DNA of 15,903 bases. Origin: Candidatus Geohabitans tengchongensis. GTDB lineage: Bacteria > Sysuimicrobiota > Sysuimicrobiia > Sysuimicrobiales > Humicultoraceae. A program made the translations under genes and the position numbers. The stretch spans positions 316,411 to 332,313 of the forward strand of contig JAVKIH010000001.1 of assembly GCA_031459625.1 (NCBI GenBank). Reading direction: 5' to 3'. Position 1 is the first letter of the stretch; every line of letters begins with the position of its first letter. A model generated the notes under the pieces. The model was not told where the DNA came from. It saw only the letters and a program-made list of their open reading frames with translations, and ran no database searches. Of the stretch, positions 2,930 through 15,903 are shown piece by piece.

Positions 2930-2997
2930 CGGCCCGGGCTTTCACGAGCTCGTTCAAGGCCCAGACAATGACCGTTTTTGGCCCATCTCGGGCTGTG

Positions 2998-3021
2998 CGC
3001 GCCGGCAGATCTGCCGGCGCG
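2998..3021. repeat. Perfect 24-bp palindrome in the putative hppA leader
   Basis: CGCGCCGGCAGATCTGCCGGCGCG is its own reverse complement. Confidence 0.85.
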
Positions 3022-3058
3022 TCGTGCGCCCGCCCTGTGGTGGGCGGCTGGAGCGACG

Positions 3059-5035
3059 ATGCCCGTACCTGTGGAGACCTCGGCCTTTAGCGCGGCCGGC
3101 ACGGCCGTGCTCGGTCTGGTCTTTGCCGCCGTCACGGCCCGGTGGATCCGCCGGCGCGAGGACGGGACCGCCCGCATGCGCGAGATCGCCGCGGCCATCC
3201 GCGAGGGGGCGATGGCCTTCCTGGCCCTGGAGTACCGCGTGCTCGCCCTCTTCGTGCTGGTCGTCGCCCTCCTGCTGGCCGTGGCCCTGCGCTGGGAGCT
3301 GGCCGTGGCCTTCGTCACGGGGGCCGTGCTCTCGGCCTCCGCCGGCAACGTCGGGATGCGCGTGGCCACGCTGGCCAACGTGCGCACCGCGGCCGCCGCG
3401 CGGCGGGGCATCCCGGAAGGGCTCACCGTGGCGTTCCGCTCGGGCGCGGTGATGGGCTTCTCCGTCGTGGGGCTGGCCCTGCTCGGCATCTCGCTCCTCT
3501 GGGTGCTCTTCCACCGCAACCCCGAGGTCGTCTTCGGCTTCTCCTTCGGCGCCTCGTCCGTGGCCCTCTTCGCCCGGGTGGGCGGCGGGATCTACACCAA
3601 GGCCGCCGACGTGGGGGCCGACCTGGTGGGCAAGGTCGAGGCCGGGATCCCCGAGGACGACCCGCGCAACCCGGCGGTGATCGCCGACAACGTGGGGGAC
3701 AACGTCGGGGACGTGGCGGGGATGGGGGCCGACCTCTTCGAGAGCTACGCGGGCTCGGTGATCGCCGCCCTGGCCCTGGGGGTGGCGGGCGGCGACGCCC
3801 GCGGGGCGGCCGCCCCCTTCCTGCTGGCGGCGGTCGGGCTCGTGGCCAGCCTGCTGGGGACGTTCGTCGTCTCCGGCCGCACCGCCTCGCCCCAGGCGGC
3901 GCTCAACCGCGGCATCGTGGGGGCGACCGGGCTCACGGCGGTCCTGGCGGCAGGGCTGAGCTGGTGGCTGTACGGGGCGCTCGCCGTCTGGTGGGCCTTC
4001 CTGGCCGGGCTGGTCGCCGGCGTCGTCATCGGCTTCGCCACGGAGTACTACACCAGCAGCCACGCCCGGCCCACCCGGGCGGTGGCGCAGGCGGCGGTGA
4101 CCGGGTCCGGGACCAACATCATCGCGGGGCTCGCGCTGGGCATGGTGAGCGTGGCCGTGCCGGTGCTGGCGGTGGGCGCGGCCATCCTCATCGCCTACCA
4201 GGTCGCCGGCATCTTCGGGATCGCGCTCGCGGGGGTGGGGATGCTCTCCACCCTGGGGATCACCCTCGCGGCGGACACCTACGGCCCGGTGGCCGACAAC
4301 GCCGCCGGGATCGCGGAGATGGCGGGACTCGGGCGCGAGGTGCGCGCGCGGGCGGAGGCGCTGGACGCCGTGGGGAACACCACCGCGGCCATCGGCAAGG
4401 GGTTCGCCATCGGCTCGGCGGCCCTCACCGCGCTCGCGCTGCTGGTCTCCTACGGGCAGGTGGCCGGTGTGGCCACGGTCAACCTCCTGAGCCCGCTGAC
4501 GCTGGTGGGCGTCTTCCTGGGCGGGATGATGCCCTTCCTCTTCAGCGCCTTCGCCATGTCGGCGGTGGGGCGGGCGGCCATGCAGATGGTGGAGGAGGTG
4601 CGCCGCCAGTTCCGCGAGATCCCCGGATTGCTCCGCGGCGACGGCGACGCGCGCCCCGACTACGGCCGCGCCGTGGCCATCGCCACGGGGGCGGCCATCC
4701 GGGAGATGGTCCTCCCCGGCCTGCTGGCCGTGGTGGTGCCGGTGGTGACGGGGTTCCTGCTCGGGCGGGAGGCGCTGGCCGGGCTGCTCGGGGGCTCCAT
4801 CGTGACCGGCTTCCTGGTGGCGGTGATGATGGCCAACGCCGGCGGGGCCTGGGACAATGCCAAGAAGTACATCGAGGAGGGCCACCTGGGCGGAAAGGGC
4901 TCGGAGGCGCACAAGGCCGCGGTGGTGGGCGACACCGTGGGCGACCCGTTCAAGGACACCGCCGGGCCTTCCCTCAACATCCTGCTCAAGCTGATGGCCG
5001 TCATCGCCATCGTCATCGCCCCGCTGTTGCGGTGA
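3059..5035 (+). CDS. hppA: Membrane-bound pyrophosphatase, K+-dependent class, probably Na+-translocating (~658 aa)
   Basis: [64 protein letters not shown]. The K+ determinant reads GNTTAAIG (Ala...Gly) and the gate helix reads [10 protein letters not shown] 3059 follows GGAG. Confidence 0.96.
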
Positions 5036-5126
5036 CGGCGCGTCCGCGCACGCCGGCGGGCCCCGGAGGGTGTAGGCAGCGACAGGCCCCGGCAGCTTGG
5101 GGTCCGCGCGCGAGGAGGGAACGACC

Positions 5127-7490
5127 GTGGAAGGACAGGGACTGAGCGAGTCGCAACTCCGCCTGCCGCACTTCGGCGGGGTGGAGCAGGCCATCCTCTG
5201 GGCCGTGCTCGCCGCCGCCGTGCTGGCCCTGGTCTATGGGTGGTGGCTGCGGGCGCGCGTCACTCGGCGCGACCCCGGGACGCGCGAGATGCAGACGGTG
5301 GCCGGCGCCATCCAGGAGGGGGCGCTGGCCTACCTGCGCCGGCAGCTGCGGGCGATGCTGCCCTTCGTCGTGCTGGTCACCGGCGGCCTCTACGTCCTCT
5401 ACCGGCCCATCTACGCCGACCGGCCCGTCCTGGCCCTGGGCGTGGCCGCGGCGTTCCTGCTCGGCTGCTTCGCCTCCTACGGGGCCGGCTACGTGGGGAT
5501 GACCTCGGCGGTGCAGGGCAACGTGCGGGTGGCCAGCGCCGCCCGCCGCTCCTACCGCGAGGCGTTGGAGATCGCCTTCCAGGCCGGGACGATCTCCGGG
5601 ATGTTCACGGTGGGGCTGGGGCTGCTCGGCGCCACGGTGATGTTCATGCTCTTCCGCGAGGACGCCATGCGCGTGCTGGTGGGCTTCGGGTTCGGCGGTT
5701 CGCTGGTGGCCGCCTTCATGCGCGTGGGCGGCGGGATCTACACCAAGGCCGCCGACGTGGGGGCCGACCTGGTGGGCAAGGTGGAGGTGGGCATCCCCGA
5801 GGACGACCCGCGCAACGCCGCCGTGATCGCCGACAACGTGGGGGACAACGTGGGCGACTGCGCCGGGATGGCCGCCGATGTCTTCGAGTCCTATGAAGTG
5901 ACCCTGGTGGCGGCGATCATCCTGGGGGCGGCGACCCTGCTCGAGCCCGCCTTCATCGAGCGCTACGGGGGCATGGCCGCCGCCAGCGCCTTCGCCCTCA
6001 AGCTGATCCTCTTCCCCCTGGCGGTGCGCGCCGTGGGCGTCTTCGCCTCGCTCGTGGGCACCTGGCTCGTCCGGGGCAGCGACGAGGAGGTGGGCGACCC
6101 GATGCGGCCCATCAACCGCGGCTTCTACGCCTCGGCGCTCCTCTCCGTGGCGGGCTTCGGCCTCGTGAACTGGCTCTACCTGCGCGATCCCGTCACCGGC
6201 ACCCCGGACTTCCGCTTCTTCCTGGCCACGCTGATGGGTATCGTGCTGGCCCTGGTCATCGGCTGGCTCACCGAGCTCTTCACCCACGAGGACCGCGGGC
6301 CGGTGGGGGAGATCGCCTACGCCACCCGCACCGGTCCCGCCACCATGCTGCTCACCGGGTTGGGCACGGGGCTGGAGAGCAGCGTGTGGGCCATCGTGGC
6401 CATCGCCGCCACCATCCTGGGGTCAATGGCCATCTTCGGCGGCGACCCGGCGCTGGCCGCCTACGGCATCGCCCTGGCCGGGCTGGGGTTGCTCACCACC
6501 ACCGGCTTCATCCTGGCCATGGACACCTACGGCCCCATCGTGGACAACGCCAACGGCATCTTCGAGATGTCCGGCGTGGAGCGGGGCGGGGAGACCACGG
6601 CGGGCCGCATCGTGGCGCGGCTGGACGCCGTGGGGAACACCACCAAGGCGCTGACCAAGGGCTTCGCCATCGCCACGGCGGTGGTGGCGGCCATCGCCCT
6701 CTTCCGCTCCTTCGTGGGCGAGGCCCGCCTGCTGGTGAGCCCCGAGCAGCTGCAGGCGGCGGGAGCGGCGGTCCGCGCCCTGCTCGACCGGGTGGGCATC
6801 CAGGTGAACCTGCCGCAGGTCTTCGTCGGCCTGCTCATCGGCGGCGCGGTGCCCTTCCTCGTCTCCGCCTTCCTCATCCGGGCGGTGGGCCGCTCCGCCT
6901 TCCTGGTGGTCGAGGAGGTGCGCCGCCAGTTCCGGGAGATCCCGGGCCTGATGGAGGGGCGGGCCCGCCCCGACTACTCGCGCTGCGTGGACATCGTCAC
7001 CCGCGCGGCGCAGCGGGAGCTGCTCAGCCCGGCGCTGCTGGCCATCGGCGCGCCGGTGCTCGTGGGGTTCGGGCTGGGCGCGGGGGCGCTCGGAGGCTAC
7101 CTGGCGGGGGCCATCCTCACCGCGCAGCTGCTGGCCGTCTTCATGGCCAACACCGGCGGGGCCTGGGACAACGCCAAGAAGAAGATCGAGGACGGCTACC
7201 TGGGGGGCAAGGGCACCGACGCGCACAAGGCCGCCGTCATCGGCGACACGGTGGGCGACCCCCTGAAGGACACCGCCGGCCCGGCTCTCAACCCGCTGAT
7301 CAAGGTGATGAACCTGGTGGCCATCCTCATCGCCCCGGTGATCGTGCGGCCGTTGAGCCTGGAGGTGCGCGGAGGGGTGGCCCTGCTGGCCCTCCTCGTC
7401 ATCGCCGTGGGCGTCTACCTGAGCAAGCGCACGGCGCTGGGCCGGGAGGAGGTGCGCCCGCGCGTGGCGGGGGAGGTGGCCGGGAGCTAG
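5127..7490 (+). CDS. hppA: Membrane-bound pyrophosphatase, K+-independent H+-translocating class (~787 aa)
   Basis: Same catalytic motifs. The determinant reads GNTTKALT (Lys...Thr); also [15 protein letters not shown] 5127 follows GAGGAGGG at 5112-5119. Confidence 0.96.
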
Positions 7491-10705: not shown

Positions 10706-11351
10706 TCTCCCCAGGCCCGAGACATGGCCCTACCGGCTGGCCTACCGTGTGGTGCGCGCGGTGCTGGGGTGCTACCTGCGCCTGGCCGTGGAGGGGACGG
10801 CGCACGTACCGGCCGGGGCGGCCCTCCTGGTGGCCAACCACCCCAGCGCCCTCGACCCCGTCCTCATCGCCGCCGCCCTCCCGCGGCGTGCCGTCTTCAT
10901 GGGGGCGGCCGAGTTCCTCACCTGGCCAGTGGTGGGGTGGGTGATGCGGGCGTACGGCGTCGTCCCGGTGCGCCGGGGCCGGGTGGACGCGGCGGCCGTC
11001 CGCGAGGCGGTGCGGGTCCTGCGGGCGGGCGGCCTCCTCGTCATCTTCCCGGAGGGGCGGGTGGCGCCCTCCGGAGGGGCGCTCAGGCCCGGCGCAGGAC
11101 TTCTGGCCGCCGCCGCACACGTCCCCGTCGTCCCCGTAGCCGTCGTGGGCTCGTCGCGCGCCCTGCCGCTCGGCCGCTACCTTCCCCGCCCCGTCCCCGT
11201 GCGGGTGTGCATCGGTCCGCCGCTCCCACCGCCCCCGGACCGGGAGGCGGGGGAGCGCACGGTGGAAGAGGCGATGGCCTGGATCCGGCGCACCGCGGCC
11301 TCGCGACCGGCGGAGGCCTCGCCGGCGCAGCCCCCGGCGGGTTCCGCCTAG
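10698..11351 (+). CDS. 1-acyl-sn-glycerol-3-phosphate (lysophospholipid) acyltransferase, PlsC family; start uncertain (CTG 10698 or GTG 10749)
   Basis: VANHPSALD (NHxxxxD), PVRR, IFPEGR, VPVVPVAV. Confidence 0.9.
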   Translation: MTDLPRPETWPYRLAYRVVRAVLGCYLRLAVEGTAHVPAGAALLVANHPSALDPVLIAAALPRRAVFMGAAEFLTWPVVGWVMRAYGVVPVRRGRVDAAAVREAVRVLRAGGLLVIFPEGRVAPSGGALRPGAGLLAAAAHVPVVPVAVVGSSRALPLGRYLPRPVPVRVCIGPPLPPPPDREAGERTVEEAMAWIRRTAASRPAEASPAQPPAGSA

Positions 11352-11388
11352 CCGCGCCCCTGGGCGCCGGCTTCTTGACACCCGGCCC

Positions 11389-11416
11389 TTGACGGCCGGG
11401 ACGAGGGTGCTACCCT
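11389..11416 (+). promoter_or_regulatory. Putative sigma70-type promoter for the leader peptide/sulfurtransferase operon
   Basis: TTGACG (11389-11394), 16-nt spacer, extended -10 TG-c-TACCCT (11408-11416). Predicted TSS near 11423. Confidence 0.65.
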
Positions 11417-11429
11417 GAACCTAATCGTG

Positions 11430-11525
11430 ATGGTCATCGGGTTTGCGTACAGGCCGTTCACTCCGCGACAGTGCATCTGTCCCGGGCGGAGGCCGCGTGC
11501 CTTCGCCCGTCCCCGGCCGGCCTGA
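11430..11525 (+). CDS. Putative Cys-containing leader peptide, 31 aa: MVIGFAYRPFTPRQCICPGRRPRAFARPRPA
   Basis: ATG 11430 (in-frame GTG at 11427) lies a few nt after the predicted TSS with no SD. TGC-ATC-TGT at 11472-11480, TGA at 11523-11525. It precedes sulfur-metabolism genes and overlaps alternative helices. Confidence 0.65.
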   Translation: MVIGFAYRPFTPRQCICPGRRPRAFARPRPA

Positions 11526-11678
11526 TCCGCCGGCGCTGACACTCCCCCGAAGGCACCGCGGTCTCCGCCGTCGCTGACCGTCGCCCGCACGACAGGGCGG
11601 GCGGGCACGCCGTGCGGTTCTACCGCCTCCGCTGCGGTGGAACGGACGGACTCCGGATGTGAGGAGCGAGGTGGAGAC
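11485..11678 (+). promoter_or_regulatory. Putative translational attenuator (anti-anti-SD / anti-SD / SD switch)
   Basis: 11485-11505 pairs with 11548-11569 (21 bp, 1 G-U, 1 bulge). Alternatively 11561-11575 pairs with the SD region 11665-11678 (14 bp, 1 G-U, 1 bulge). Both helices need 11561-11569. Confidence 0.72.
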
Positions 11679-11679
11679 G

Positions 11680-12519
11680 ATGGCATACGCACACCCTGAG
11701 GTTCTGGTCGAGCCGGAGTGGCTGCAGGCGCACCTGGACGACCCCACGGTGCGCATCGTGGAGTCGAGCGAGAACACCGCGCTCTACGCGGAGGGGCACA
11801 TCCCCAACGCCCTCCTGCTGCACTGGCGGGAGGACCTGCAGGACCCGGTGGTGCGCGACTGGGTGAGTCGGGAGCGCTTCGCCCAGCTCCTGGGGGAGCG
11901 CGGCATCAGCGACGCGCACACCGTGGTCCTCTACGGCGACCGGCACAACTGGTTCGCCGCCTACGCCTTCTGGCTCTTCAAGTACTACGGGCACCGGGAC
12001 GCGCGGCTGCTCAACGGGGGGCGGGACCGCTGGGTGCGCGAGGAGCGCCCGCTCACGACGGACGTCCCCCGCTTCCCGCCGGCCACCTACCGCGCGGGGG
12101 ATCCCGACCGGCAGATCCGCGCCTTTCGGGACGACCTCCTGCGGCGGCTCGGCGACCGGTCGCTGGCCCTGGTGGACGTCCGCTCCCCCGAGGAGTACCG
12201 CGGCGAGCTGCTGGCGCCCCCGGCCTATCCCCAGGAGGGGGCTCAGCGCGGCGGGCACATCCCCGGGGCCGTGAACATCCCCTGGGTGCAGAACCTGCGG
12301 GAGGACGGGACGTTCAAATCCCCCGAGGAGCTGCGGCGCCTCTACGAGAGCGCCGGGATCACCCCCGACCGCGAGGTGGTGGCCTACTGCCGCATCGGGG
12401 AGCGCTCCTCCCTCACCTGGTTCACGCTGGGCTACCTGCTCGGCTACCCCTCGGTGCGCAACTACGACGGGTCCTGGACCGAGTGGGGCAGCCTGGTGGC
12501 CAGCCCCATCGAGCGGTGA
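11680..12519 (+). CDS. Tandem-domain rhodanese / thiosulfate sulfurtransferase (CysA/SseA-like, ~279 aa)
   Basis: YAHPEVLVEPEWL, YAEGHIPNA, LLNGGRDRW, VDVRSPEEYRG, GGHIPGA, active-site loop YCRIGERSS, YDGSWTEWG. ATG 11680 follows GAGGTGGAG. Confidence 0.96.
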   Translation: MAYAHPEVLVEPEWLQAHLDDPTVRIVESSENTALYAEGHIPNALLLHWREDLQDPVVRDWVSRERFAQLLGERGISDAHTVVLYGDRHNWFAAYAFWLFKYYGHRDARLLNGGRDRWVREERPLTTDVPRFPPATYRAGDPDRQIRAFRDDLLRRLGDRSLALVDVRSPEEYRGELLAPPAYPQEGAQRGGHIPGAVNIPWVQNLREDGTFKSPEELRRLYESAGITPDREVVAYCRIGERSSLTWFTLGYLLGYPSVRNYDGSWTEWGSLVASPIER

Positions 12520-12527
12520 GGGCACCC

Positions 12528-12986
12528 ATGGGATCGCCGCGCGCGCCCCACCCCACGACGGTCGACCACAACGCCATCAAGTTCGGCCAGGTGGTCATCG
12601 TCCTCACGGTGGCCGTGGCCTGGCTGGCCGCCCTGCCGGTCCTGGTGGCCGTCCTGGCGGCCGTCCTCCTGCTGAACGTGGCGCTGGGAGAGTCCGGGCC
12701 GCTCCGGCTCCTCTACCGTCACGTCGTCCTGCCGCTGCGGGTCGTCCGGCCCCACCCGGTGCCGGACGACCCCGCGCCGCACCGCTTCGCCCAGGGGGTG
12801 GGCGGCGGGGTCCTGGCAGTCGCCGCCGCCGCCTTTGCCGCCGGCGCGTCCGCGGTGGGCTGGCTCCTGGCGGCCCTGGTGGCGGTACTGGCGGCGGTGA
12901 ACGTCCTCTGGAACTTCTGCGCGGGGTGCTTCCTCTACGCGCAGCTCCGGCGGGCCGGCCTCATCCGCCGCCGCGAAGCCGCATGA
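12528..12986 (+). CDS. DUF4395-family membrane protein (~152 aa)
   Basis: C-terminal part of track ORF 11718..12986. VDHNAIKFGQ, DDPAPHRFAQGVG, FCAGCFLY and four hydrophobic segments. Confidence 0.85.
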   Translation: MGSPRAPHPTTVDHNAIKFGQVVIVLTVAVAWLAALPVLVAVLAAVLLLNVALGESGPLRLLYRHVVLPLRVVRPHPVPDDPAPHRFAQGVGGGVLAVAAAAFAAGASAVGWLLAALVAVLAAVNVLWNFCAGCFLYAQLRRAGLIRRREAA

Positions 12987-13429
12987 CCCGCCTGCTGGTC
13001 CTCCTCGCCATCCTCGCCGCGCTGGGGCTCGTCGCGCTCTGGCTGTGGCGCCGCCCGCAGGCGCTCACGCGGCGTCTGGCGCACACGGGGGCGCTCGACG
13101 GGCTGGTCCCGCCGGGCCGCCCGGCCATCCTGGCCTTTGCCTCCACGGACTGCGCCGTCTGCCGCAGCGCCCAGCGCCCCGCCCTCGACGAGGTTGCCGC
13201 GGCCCTGGGAGAGGCGGTGACGGTGCGCGAGGTGGACATCGTCCAGGAGCCGGCCCTGGCCCGGGCATTCACCGTCTTCACCGTGCCGAGCACCGTGGTG
13301 CTGGACGGCGAGGGGCGGGTCGTGGCCTTCAACGCTGGCTACGCCCCGCCCGATCGGCTCCGCCGGCAGGTCCTCCAGGCGGGCAGGAGCCCCTCCCCGC
13401 GGGGCGAACAGAGCGTAGGGCTCACCTGA
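12983..13429 (+). CDS. Membrane-anchored thioredoxin-family protein (~148 aa)
   Basis: ATGA overlap with the DUF4395 stop, N-terminal TM helix, FASTDCAVC (CxxC), VFTVPSTVVLD (cis-Pro loop). Confidence 0.88.
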   Translation: MTRLLVLLAILAALGLVALWLWRRPQALTRRLAHTGALDGLVPPGRPAILAFASTDCAVCRSAQRPALDEVAAALGEAVTVREVDIVQEPALARAFTVFTVPSTVVLDGEGRVVAFNAGYAPPDRLRRQVLQAGRSPSPRGEQSVGLT

Positions 13430-13575: not shown

Positions 13576-14181
13576 ATGCGCGTGCTGGCTGCGCTCATCG
13601 GTGTCCTGCTGTGCGCCACGGCGGCCGTCGGCCAGACGGTCAGGGGCGATGTGCGGGCCTGGCAGGAGATCTCGGCCGCCCGGGAGCGACTGAGCCGCCT
13701 GAAGACCTACCGGATGCGCGTCACCTCGTCGGGGCAGCCCGCGCCGTCGGTGGTGGAGCGGGTGAACCCCGACCGCTCCCGGATGGTGATGAAGCAGGGG
13801 GAGATCACCATCGAGTCGATCACCGTGGGGAAGGAGACCCGGTTCCGCATGGCGGGGCCCGGCATGCTCGGGACCTGGCAGTGCCAGGGAGCCCTGCCCA
13901 AAGGGGCTGCCCCGGCGCAACCGCCACAGCCGGGGAAGGCCGAGGGGGAGATCACGGTGCGCCGGCTGGGCCCGAGGACCGTCGCGGGCGTGTCCACCCA
14001 GGCCTACGAGTACGCGACCTCCGGCAAGGGCGGGACGACGACGCAACGGCTCTACGTCGGACGGGACGGGTTGCCGCGGCGTCTGGAGCTCCTCGGCGGG
14101 AAGGGCGGCCAACCCGTCACGACCGTCGACTACTACGACTTCAACGCGCCCATCACCATCCCGCTGCCGGCCTGCAGCTGA
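13576..14181 (+). CDS. Secreted protein of unknown function, paralog A (~201 aa)
   Basis: GGAGG at 13561-13565 then ATG 13576. Signal peptide MRVLAALIGVLLCATAAVG. Colinear similarity to the next gene. Confidence 0.82.
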   Translation: MRVLAALIGVLLCATAAVGQTVRGDVRAWQEISAARERLSRLKTYRMRVTSSGQPAPSVVERVNPDRSRMVMKQGEITIESITVGKETRFRMAGPGMLGTWQCQGALPKGAAPAQPPQPGKAEGEITVRRLGPRTVAGVSTQAYEYATSGKGGTTTQRLYVGRDGLPRRLELLGGKGGQPVTTVDYYDFNAPITIPLPACS

Positions 14182-14224
14182 TCCGCCGCCGTCATCCTGC
14201 GGATCCCCCGTGATCGGGCCAGGC

Positions 14225-14243
14225 GCTTAGCCTTTCGCTAAGC
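14225..14243. repeat. Inverted repeat GCTTAGC-N5-GCTAAGC, possible operator or hairpin
   Basis: Perfect 7-bp arms in a relatively AT-rich patch about 30 nt upstream of paralog B. Confidence 0.5.
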
Positions 14244-14274
14244 ATGCCCGCCTAGGGTTGTCCAAGGAGGGGGG

Positions 14275-15024
14275 GTGAGGGCCGTGCGCCTGGTCGCCGC
14301 GGTGGTGCTGGTGGTCCTGGCGGTCACGCCCGCGCCAGCCCAGCGGGTGAGCGGGGACGCGGGGGCCTGGGAGGAGGTCAAGGCGGCTTTCGACCGCCTC
14401 CAGGCCCTCCGGACCTACAGGATGATCATGTCGCTCGGTCCCGAGATGAGCGCCCAACGGCAGATGACGATCCTTACGGAGGTGGTGAACCCCGACCGGC
14501 GGCGGACGGTCATGGAGTTCCCGGAGGGCATGGCCGAGTCGATCATCGTCGGGCGCCAGCTGGCCTCCCGGTTCGTGAGCAAGACCAGTCAGCCGGCGGT
14601 GCCGCAGCCCTCGCTCGGGCTCGGGGGGCTGCTCAGCGCCTTCCTGGACCCGGTCGGTTTCCTCACCGGGTTCTTCTTGCAGGCGGCCATGAACGCCATG
14701 ATGCAGGCGGTCACGCAGCGCCTCATGGGGTGGCGGTGCCAGACCCTGGACGAGGGCGGCGGGAGCAGCGGTGGCCAGGGAGCCAGCGAGCCCGAGGTCG
14801 AGGTGCGGCGGCTCTCCGACGCGACAGTCGGCGGCGCCCCGGCGCGGGTCTACCAGATCGTGTGGCGGATGTCGGGACAGCGCGCCCATGAGGAGCGCCT
14901 CTCCGTCACCGCGGACGGGATGCCGCGCCGGTCGGAGGCGTTCGACCAGGGCAAGCCGTTCATGATCACGGACTACCAGGACTTCAACGCGCCCATCACC
15001 ATCGAGCTGCCGCGCTGCACCTGA
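14275..15024 (+). CDS. Secreted protein of unknown function, paralog B (249 aa)
   Basis: AAGGAGG at 14264-14270. Signal peptide ending in TPAPA. Shares TYRM, VNPDR, ESI.VG, W.CQ, VRRL, DG.PRR and DY.DFNAPITI.LP.C with paralog A. Confidence 0.85.
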   Translation: MRAVRLVAAVVLVVLAVTPAPAQRVSGDAGAWEEVKAAFDRLQALRTYRMIMSLGPEMSAQRQMTILTEVVNPDRRRTVMEFPEGMAESIIVGRQLASRFVSKTSQPAVPQPSLGLGGLLSAFLDPVGFLTGFFLQAAMNAMMQAVTQRLMGWRCQTLDEGGGSSGGQGASEPEVEVRRLSDATVGGAPARVYQIVWRMSGQRAHEERLSVTADGMPRRSEAFDQGKPFMITDYQDFNAPITIELPRCT

Positions 15025-15074: not shown

Positions 15075-15079
15075 AAGGC

Positions 15080-15903
<824 letters not shown>

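Follow-up and report, generated by a model that had tools for sequence, protein, structure and literature searches.

A conserved Pro-Arg-x-Cys-Ile-Cys leader before sulfur operons of Sysuimicrobiota: a candidate cysteine attenuator

The leader and its sulfurtransferase operon

The 15,903-nucleotide (nt) stretch of Candidatus Geohabitans tengchongensis DNA analyzed here (the window; contig JAVKIH010000001.1, positions 316,411 to 332,313) carries an operon on its forward strand, whose first gene, 11680..12519 (+), codes for a two-domain rhodanese/sulfurtransferase of the CysA2/SseA-like type (two stretches of PF00581; the match to NF008557 lies below cut-off). It is followed by genes for a DUF4395 membrane protein (12528..12986 (+); PF14340) and for a membrane-anchored thioredoxin-like protein (12983..13429 (+); PF13098, PF00085), the start of which overlaps the DUF4395 stop codon. 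Upstream of these genes, on the same strand, lies a 31-codon open reading frame (ORF) lacking a Shine-Dalgarno sequence (SD), 11430..11525, which translates as MVIGFAYRPFTPRQCICPGRRPRAFARPRPA followed by a stop, and whose sole Cys codons form a Cys-Ile-Cys (C-I-C) group at 11472-11480; an in-frame GTG at 11427 is an alternative start. A preliminary description of the window, made from its letters alone, had proposed that this ORF is the leader of a cysteine-sensing attenuator in which two mutually exclusive RNA helices govern access to the sulfurtransferase SD. The ORF and both helices are indeed present, and comparison of genomes identifies the leader as one copy of a conserved element, in which codons for P-R-x-C-I-C are followed by a hairpin 10–12 nt from the Ile codon.

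The conserved P-R-x-C-I-C codons, defined by comparison of the family, occupy 11463..11480 (+), with UGU as the second Cys codon (Cys2). They are followed by a local hairpin (11485..11507 (+); -16.6 kcal/mol), supported by sequence and family comparison, whose arm 1 (11485-11493) mimics an SD and pairs with arm 2 (11499-11507); arm 1 has its core G at 11486, 11 nt away from where the Ile codon begins. Arm 1 also begins a long helix, 11485..11569 (+), in which 11485-11505 pairs with 11548-11569 over 21 base pairs (bp) with one bulge (-43.3 kcal/mol), enclosing an inner hairpin predicted at 11516..11534 (+), the loop of which contains the leader's stop codon. The long helix traps a third segment, the anti-SD (11561..11575 (+)), which can alternatively pair with 11665-11678 over 14 bp, again with one bulge (-23.6 kcal/mol), and so cover the SD region of the sulfurtransferase gene (11665..11682 (+), including the ATG). 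Folding, shuffling and covariation support both the long helix and the anti-SD. Two predicted spacer hairpins (11578..11643 (+)) would draw the anti-SD and the SD together. A further segment in the 5' part of the ORF, 11453..11466 (+), is predicted to pair with the SD core and AUG (11671-11684) when it is free of ribosomes.

A sigma70-type promoter is predicted at 11389..11416 (+), with a -35 element at 11389-11394 and an extended -10 element at 11408-11416, placing the expected start site near 11423. Its sequence (TTGACG, 16 nt, TGn-TACCCT) matches 8 of 12 consensus positions and falls below the threshold of the promoter scan. The promoter named in the preliminary description is nonetheless plausible because homologues share a TTGAC-type -35: in 49 of 72 of them TTGAC is accompanied by an in-frame start 1–26 nt past the estimated start site. 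The 5' untranslated region (UTR) estimated from such predicted start sites is about 4–7 nt in the window and 1–26 nt in the 49 homologues (at most 12 nt in 33).

Between 11000 and 12000 no intrinsic terminator-like site was detected, such as the U-tract terminator of classical trp/his-type attenuators. Rfam covariance models gave no match at gathering score in the window (the best in 11340-11720 has E=2.4), and NCBIfam searches with 11430-11522 and 11427-11522 recovered no family at E<=10, such short queries being weak. A single metatranscriptome run contains the stretch, as a flat 17-kb contig that possibly represents DNA or the window's own source and speaks neither for nor against the leader.

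Distribution of the element, its codons and its genes

To sample the family independently of the leader, 30 rhodanese loci were collected by protein alone and the leader then sought within 1.5 kb upstream. PRxCIC codons precede the rhodanese gene at 21 of these loci, the window included, and one more has A-R-S-C-I-C, so that conservation of the Cys codons, the test named in the preliminary description, is evident. A GTDB-wide pattern comprising only ATCTGT and the hairpin returned 85 matches, 62 of which contain an in-frame PRxC that the pattern had not demanded; the remaining 23 are mostly from unrelated bacteria by record title. A looser pattern found matches in 83 of 94 Sysuimicrobiota genomes and in 30 of 31 genera, with 201 matches against 37 in the reversed control (37 being a sum made by hand; the tally takes in two unpublished genomes, G008 and G018, which are the sole basis of no claim). 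The window's genome has two copies, the second of which (C11:39048-39133 (-); L196, PRQCIC) precedes genes for an SsuA/NMT1-like binding protein, an ATP-binding cassette (ABC) ATPase and a permease, the family being assigned by likeness.

Outside the phylum sample, one genome (G094) carries the element three times, each on its own contig, before rhodanese, SsuA-like ABC transporter and sulfite reductase genes, whose products are 41–67% identical to their Sysuimicrobiota counterparts. Model searches outside the phylum used genome samples, with 35 candidates scored per genome. Among 151 genomes of G094's phylum the element was found in G094 and in none of the other 150, and both transfer and a chimeric bin are open as explanations of its copies. 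One of them, L215:1471-1570 (G094:C83), has an extra C-E-C near its end and precedes rhodanese and NifU/SufU-like genes. In G096's phylum 10 of 151 genomes matched at E<=1e-4, of which only G096's own short contig is convincing and L210 is doubtful, and a peptide-only pattern gave scattered matches near the control level in 201 genomes of that phylum; in G095's phylum the single match among 151 genomes has neither PR nor a downstream gene. The doubtful L210 (region 1500-1560; G167:C22) is a PRQCIC-coding stretch 162 nt 5' of a DUF3034-like gene and is not accompanied by the canonical hairpin. No viral contig with the element was found.

Several features point to selection on the encoded peptide. 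An open ATG occurs 9–90 nt upstream in the C-I-C frame in 66 of 73 leaders, while the two alternative frames have one in 8 and 7, and in a metagenome set, which may share organisms with the first, the corresponding figures are 88 of 99 against 10 and 5. The length of the leader 5' of C-I-C varies while the frame is kept, whereas 3' of C-I-C the frame shifts between subfamilies with 5- and 6-nt spacers; thus the ends of the peptide are free in length and frame across the family. Pro and Arg are retained in 77 of 79 leaders (a count that leaves out L033, L090, L098 and L100 and retains one false positive, the proS start in L064), with an entropy of 1.73–1.78 bits at third codon positions against 0.10–0.27 at positions 1 and 2, and Arg persists through a CGN-to-AGA change in L015. 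This pattern indicates that the PR motif is under protein-level selection. Synonymous variation is seen at P, R and the first Cys codon (Cys1), and once at Cys2 (L146).

All aligned copies read C-I-C, and two consecutive Cys codons occur in none of them. Cys1 is TGC in 66 leaders and TGT in 13, near the genome-wide TGT share of 11%, while at Cys2 every one of the 21 protein-anchored PRxCIC copies has TGT, as do 136 of the 150 listed matches to a pattern permitting both codons. The other 14 listed matches end in TGC; eight were inspected, comprising one real leader (L146) and seven apparently due to chance. PRxCIC pattern matches with a terminal TGC that were opened at the rhodanese loci were chance ones, several of them antisense to genes, and G000:C1:245527 is another. 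Four inspected matches with 7-nt spacers were also apparently fortuitous. ARAGORN calls two tRNA-Cys(GCA) and one tRNA-Sec(UCA) in the window's genome; UGC and UGU are both decoded by tRNA-Cys(GCA), UGU by wobble. Our literature search found no paper on UGU-specific cysteine sensing.

The local hairpin is the RNA part common to nearly all copies. Its two middle pairs, which were not used in anchoring the alignment, are formed in 92 and 93 of the 100 copies from metagenomes as G-C, G-U or A-U pairs. Counted from the first base of the Ile codon, arm 1 has its core at 11 nt in 76 of 98 copies, at 12 nt in 18 and at 10 nt in 4; the patterns allowed 10–13 nt, and four 13-nt matches that were opened looked like chance. 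A model-fitted alignment (A3) has 87.9% of positions paired and 13 double changes, matched by 0 of 500 shuffles, but this support is weak, as controls slid along the alignment equalled it in double changes and about 20 rows with 6-nt spacers are misregistered. Covariation of the long helix, also named as a test in the preliminary description, is clearer: beyond the anchored core 217 of 315 unanchored cells are paired, against a mean of 165 and a maximum of 184 in 2000 permutations, although the leader sequences are related and such figures are therefore overstated.

The genes behind the leader belong, by sequence, to sulfur acquisition and sulfur transfer. Among 152 elements the first gene codes for DUF4395 (45), rhodanese (36), ATP-grasp (29), sulfite reductase (8), SsuA-like (5), OsmC (5), YeeE (4), TusA (2), cystathionine lyase (2), family-5 binding protein (2) or LipB (1) proteins, the rest being two proS false positives and 11 others; several of the names are best matches below curated cut-offs. 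The leader also heads genes for SBP56, carbonic anhydrase and a MoeB-rhodanese protein, and stands before YeeE/TsuA with TusA, cystathionine gamma-lyase with beta-synthase, and SsuA-like ABC operons. The third commonest gene codes for a RimK-like ATP-grasp enzyme (L013-L025, L039, L041 and others), often accompanied by a 72–74 amino acid (aa) SH3-like protein, and is a candidate thiol or gamma-glutamyl ligase. Cluster c8 (L104:3186-4247 and relatives), of 320–350 aa and belonging to no Pfam family, has a weak match to R2-like ligand-binding oxidases and recurs beside OsmC-like, rhodanese or cupin genes in operons headed by the leader. In L052 and L081 two divergent leaders about 1.4–1.5 kb apart face an ATP-grasp/rhodanese operon on one side and an SsuA-like ABC operon on the other.

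Pairing schemes, proposed mechanism and alternatives

The whole window leader is more stable than shuffled sequences (z -2.95; 1 of 200), and its relay from arm 1 through the anti-SD to the SD exceeds that of 100 dinucleotide shuffles of the spacer (p=0.01). In constrained folding, a ribosome with its A site at Cys1 lets the long helix form (P=1.0), and opening the ribosome binding site (RBS) then costs 5.5 kcal/mol; with the ribosome beyond the Cys codons the anti-SD helix forms with P=1.0 and the cost rises to 9.4–13.7 kcal/mol, and in ribosome-free RNA it is 15.9 kcal/mol. Setting the footprint to 27 nt gives 7.9 kcal/mol at Cys1, 12.5 at Cys2, 16.7 at the stop codon and 16.7 with no ribosome. 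From these costs across ribosome positions, the sole clearly open state is that with the ribosome at the Cys codons, and the window leader thus switches in the direction that the preliminary description had predicted for this test. The route to the closed state is only partly the one envisaged there: the anti-SD buries the SD as long as the ribosome covers 11485-11495, but after its departure the long helix reforms (P=1.0 in the free RNA) and the SD and AUG are buried instead by 11453-11466 : 11671-11684. The Cys codons of the window are themselves hardly paired with the SD region (0.1 bp), the codons directly 5' of them pairing in their place.

The relay of the window is one of at least two wirings, where a single switch had been described. 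In class I, which includes the window and heads DUF4395, rhodanese and sulfite reductase operons, arm 1 has a distant partner that doubles as the anti-SD; such a partner is found at <=-18 kcal/mol in 39 of 45 DUF4395, 29 of 36 rhodanese and 8 of 8 sulfite reductase leaders, and the relay surpasses shuffled spacers at p<=0.05 in 32 of 49 leaders with 5-nt spacers against 1 of 17 in class II. The segment 5' of PR pairs over at least 4 bp in 18 of 45 class I leaders. Class II comprises the long ATP-grasp leaders, where the C-I-C codons pair directly with the RBS. This duplex stands out at p<=0.05 against 279 other RBSs in 11 of 13 ATP-grasp leaders with 6-nt spacers, the Cys codons pair with the SD region in 13 of 16 homologues, and removal of the ribosome raises the RBS cost by more than 2 kcal/mol in 15 of 16. 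Class II retains the local hairpin with no evident anti-SD role for it, which fits a role in pausing. In a third group, mostly of short leaders, arm 2 is itself a perfect anti-SD in 25 of 53; in class I this holds for 1 of 83. Pairing of the PR codons with arm 1 was considered and rejected (0 of 68 leaders at >=4 bp); they pair with the RBS at >=4 bp in 10 of 68. Overall, the preliminary description overlooked the local hairpin, the near-invariant UGU at Cys2, the second SD-burying helix, and the other wirings, including direct pairing of C-I-C with the RBS.

Taken together these observations suggest that the element is probably a cis-acting, ribosome-pausing cysteine attenuator that acts on translation initiation. 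A ribosome would start on the very short 5' UTR and translate to C-I-C, the frame and motif being defined by comparison. When the P site holds the Ile codon, UGU occupies the A site, and the conserved helix would begin at the mRNA entry channel. Should Cys-tRNA run short, the ribosome would wait at UGU, perhaps assisted by wobble reading and by the helix hindering the A site. The latter idea draws on stem-loops of dnaX and HIV which, as outlined by Bao 2020 (PMC7282821), hinder binding of tRNA to the A site when placed 11–12 nt from the first P-site base, relief coming at 13 nt. The spacing in this family, 10–12 nt, is suggestive of the same pausing geometry by analogy, and its pairing often reaches 1–3 nt further 5'; the stem-loops in that account stimulate frameshifting, whereas here no slippery site is apparent. 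The paused ribosome would cover the 5' part of the ORF and the C-I-C codons, leaving arm 1 free to hold the anti-SD and the sulfurtransferase SD open (ON). With cysteine present, the ribosome would pass arm 1 and the anti-SD would be released to pair with the SD (OFF), and once it departs the 5' part of the ORF could, as folding predicts, bury the SD and AUG (OFF). One sensor would thereby serve several wirings, the class I relay, the class II duplex and the short leaders, which together may form a sulfur-starvation ribulon.

Several findings weigh against this proposal. No C-I-C leader was found in the available DNA within 1.5 kb upstream at 8 of the 30 rhodanese loci (two with short flanks), and canonical arm 1 is missing from 3 of 22 protein-anchored leaders (L002, L003 and L015). 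The patterns behind the genome counts confined the spacer to 4–7 nt and most demanded ATCTGT, and relatedness inflates the permutation figures, as noted above. With Cys2 in the A site and a footprint reaching +15 the window leader is already OFF (anti-SD P=0.82); this state is marginal and varies with the chosen footprint, at 27 nt costing the 12.5 kcal/mol given above. Across class I the equilibrium switch is weak with a 27-nt footprint, the median at the stop codon being +0.6 kcal/mol, with values above 2 kcal/mol in 14 of 45 leaders and below -2 in 4, so that OFF in class I must be kinetic or transient; the folding of the short leaders shows no clear switch. Finally, the leaders have only two non-adjacent Cys codons, whereas proven attenuators have consecutive ones. 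A bolder reading, to which we give a rather low probability, is a composite sensor in which nascent P-R-x-C-I, the wobble-read UGU and the entry-channel hairpin at +11/12 act jointly, such that one hungry codon, or modification of the nascent Cys by reactive sulfur, gives a long pause. The sensor is more than the C-x-C of the preliminary description: C-I-C holds, but conservation extends to Pro-Arg, to UGU at Cys2 and to a hairpin placed at a fixed distance.

The retention of P and R as amino acids, with Tyr or Pro two residues before them, also invites a different view of the signal, because sensing of tRNA needs Cys codons only. In an arrest peptide, P-R-x-C-I in the exit tunnel could stall the ribosome on a sulfur metabolite or on the thiol state of the nascent Cys (sulfide, persulfide, oxidation), not merely on lack of Cys-tRNA, and feed the same downstream RNA switch. 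The absence of arm 1 pairing by the P and R codons, their infrequent RBS pairing and the Arg of L015 all agree with this, as do the many targets that process sulfane sulfur or sulfide (rhodanese, YeeE/TusA, SBP56). We nevertheless think it unlikely, since real-looking copies can do without the full PR pair (RxQCIC, RLTCIC, PLYCIC, PMKCIC, VATCIC), the fixed UGU points to decoding, and simple starvation sensing would fit those targets that supply cysteine (sulfite reductase, cystathionine lyase and synthase, sulfonate uptake); PR may merely tune the pause.

The output, too, might differ, with Rho-dependent attenuation of transcription as the primary effect and SD pairing secondary. The window's genome encodes Rho, the 30 nt past the leader stop are in most cases rich in C and poor in G, the short leaders have no clear RBS switch, and such an output was weakly suggested for actinobacterial cys leaders in the account of Seliverstov 2005 (PMC1262725). 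However, the anti-SD pairings are specific and covarying, the apparent C-richness is partly the anti-SD itself, and the mycobacterial precedent, as outlined in 10.1101/834739, proved translational; together with the lack of intrinsic terminators in 11000-12000 this makes a Rho output improbable. Least probable by far, in our judgment, is that the leader acts untranslated, as a riboswitch or protein-binding RNA with an incidental frame, or through a trans-acting small peptide, perhaps a substrate of the neighboring ATP-grasp enzyme. The near-invariance of ATCTGT as nucleotides and the ATP-grasp genes behind 29 of the 152 elements would accommodate it, but the frame tests, the synonymous changes, the freely varying peptide ends, the lack of any Rfam match and the presence of at least 10 unrelated gene families behind the same leader all argue for a translated, cis-acting attenuator.

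Neighboring features and relation to known systems

Beyond the operon, the window has a T-box leader at 15078-15267 (+) (34 bits, E=6.6e-6, below the Rfam gathering score). Its specifier is CCC (Pro) and its antiterminator is complete; a family I prolyl-tRNA synthetase gene lies 3' of the sulfur operon in relatives. Between the operon and the T-box are two tandem, related ORFs for secreted or lipoprotein-like proteins of no Pfam family (13602-15024 (+)), and farther upstream (2978-7490 (+)) are tandem membrane pyrophosphatase-like ORFs, 2978-5035, recognized by eye, and 5097-7490 (PF03030).

The element is real and conserved, and it is apparently undescribed, a new form of a known kind of mechanism. 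Literature searches, thin on subscription journals, found no description of a PRxCIC leader, and the only proven cysteine attenuators based on an upstream ORF that were met in the literature searched are mycobacterial and have Cys runs. The suggestion in the preliminary description of a distinct, undescribed family is supported by these searches, by the lack of consecutive Cys codons and by the lack of NCBIfam and Rfam matches. The family would give an uncultured phylum of soil and hot springs a phylum-wide cysteine ribulon of its own, independent of the mycobacterial one, with a minimal sensor and placed before the same kind of operon. It bears on how two separated sensing codons can hold a ribosome long enough, and offers three testable parts, namely PR, UGU and the hairpin distance. 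The element may also serve as a functional guide, predicting that DUF4395, the RimK-like ATP-grasp enzyme, OsmC-like proteins, the family-5 binding protein, SBP56 and carbonic anhydrase are under sulfur-starvation control.

As in amino-acid attenuators generally, a leader ORF and its cognate codons are conserved; mutually exclusive helices coupled to the ribosome are found by folding of the window and by covariation, with a weak effect at equilibrium in many class I homologues. TnaC is a ligand-sensing arrest peptide, and it resembles the present leaders, as do the ermCL/cat translational attenuators, in having conserved leader residues that do not sense. The ermCL/cat systems likewise use a relay of alternative helices that frees the SD, as they are cited in 10.1101/834739; in these systems and TnaC the signal is a drug or free ligand, and we claim no sequence similarity. 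The actinobacterial cys/cbs leaders, as presented in Seliverstov 2005 (PMC1262725), are predicted Cys-codon ORFs before cysteine genes that share the lack of an intrinsic terminator. In that presentation their Cys runs lie near the stop codon and no conserved hairpin appears, whereas the present leaders have a conserved hairpin and carry their Cys codons in the middle of the ORF.

The closest counterpart is the leaderless Ms5788A of Mycobacterium, whose operon reportedly includes DUF4395 and a CysA2-type sulfurtransferase. According to the outline in 10.1101/834739, which lists further mycobacterial leaders in its Tables S2-S3, Ms5788A is a short Cys-codon ORF at which a paused ribosome frees the SD, the control being translational. 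Both systems, taking that outline for the mycobacterial one, have a 5'-most short ORF with Cys codons, a paused ribosome that frees the SD (predicted here) and several sulfur operons per genome, and the class II leaders share the direct pairing of Cys codons with the SD. The Sysuimicrobiota leaders differ from what is described there in having C-I-C in place of consecutive Cys codons; in the conserved PR, UGU and fixed-distance hairpin; in class I, where a relay helix takes the part of anti-SD instead of the Cys codons; and in their estimated 5' UTRs of 1–26 nt, some with an SD, in a different phylum. Furthermore, a single homologous module stands before all operons here, while the mycobacterial short ORFs are described as largely independent. 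The family thus probably works like Ms5788A but is not a member of its group, as the defining consecutive Cys codons and any NCBIfam match are missing.

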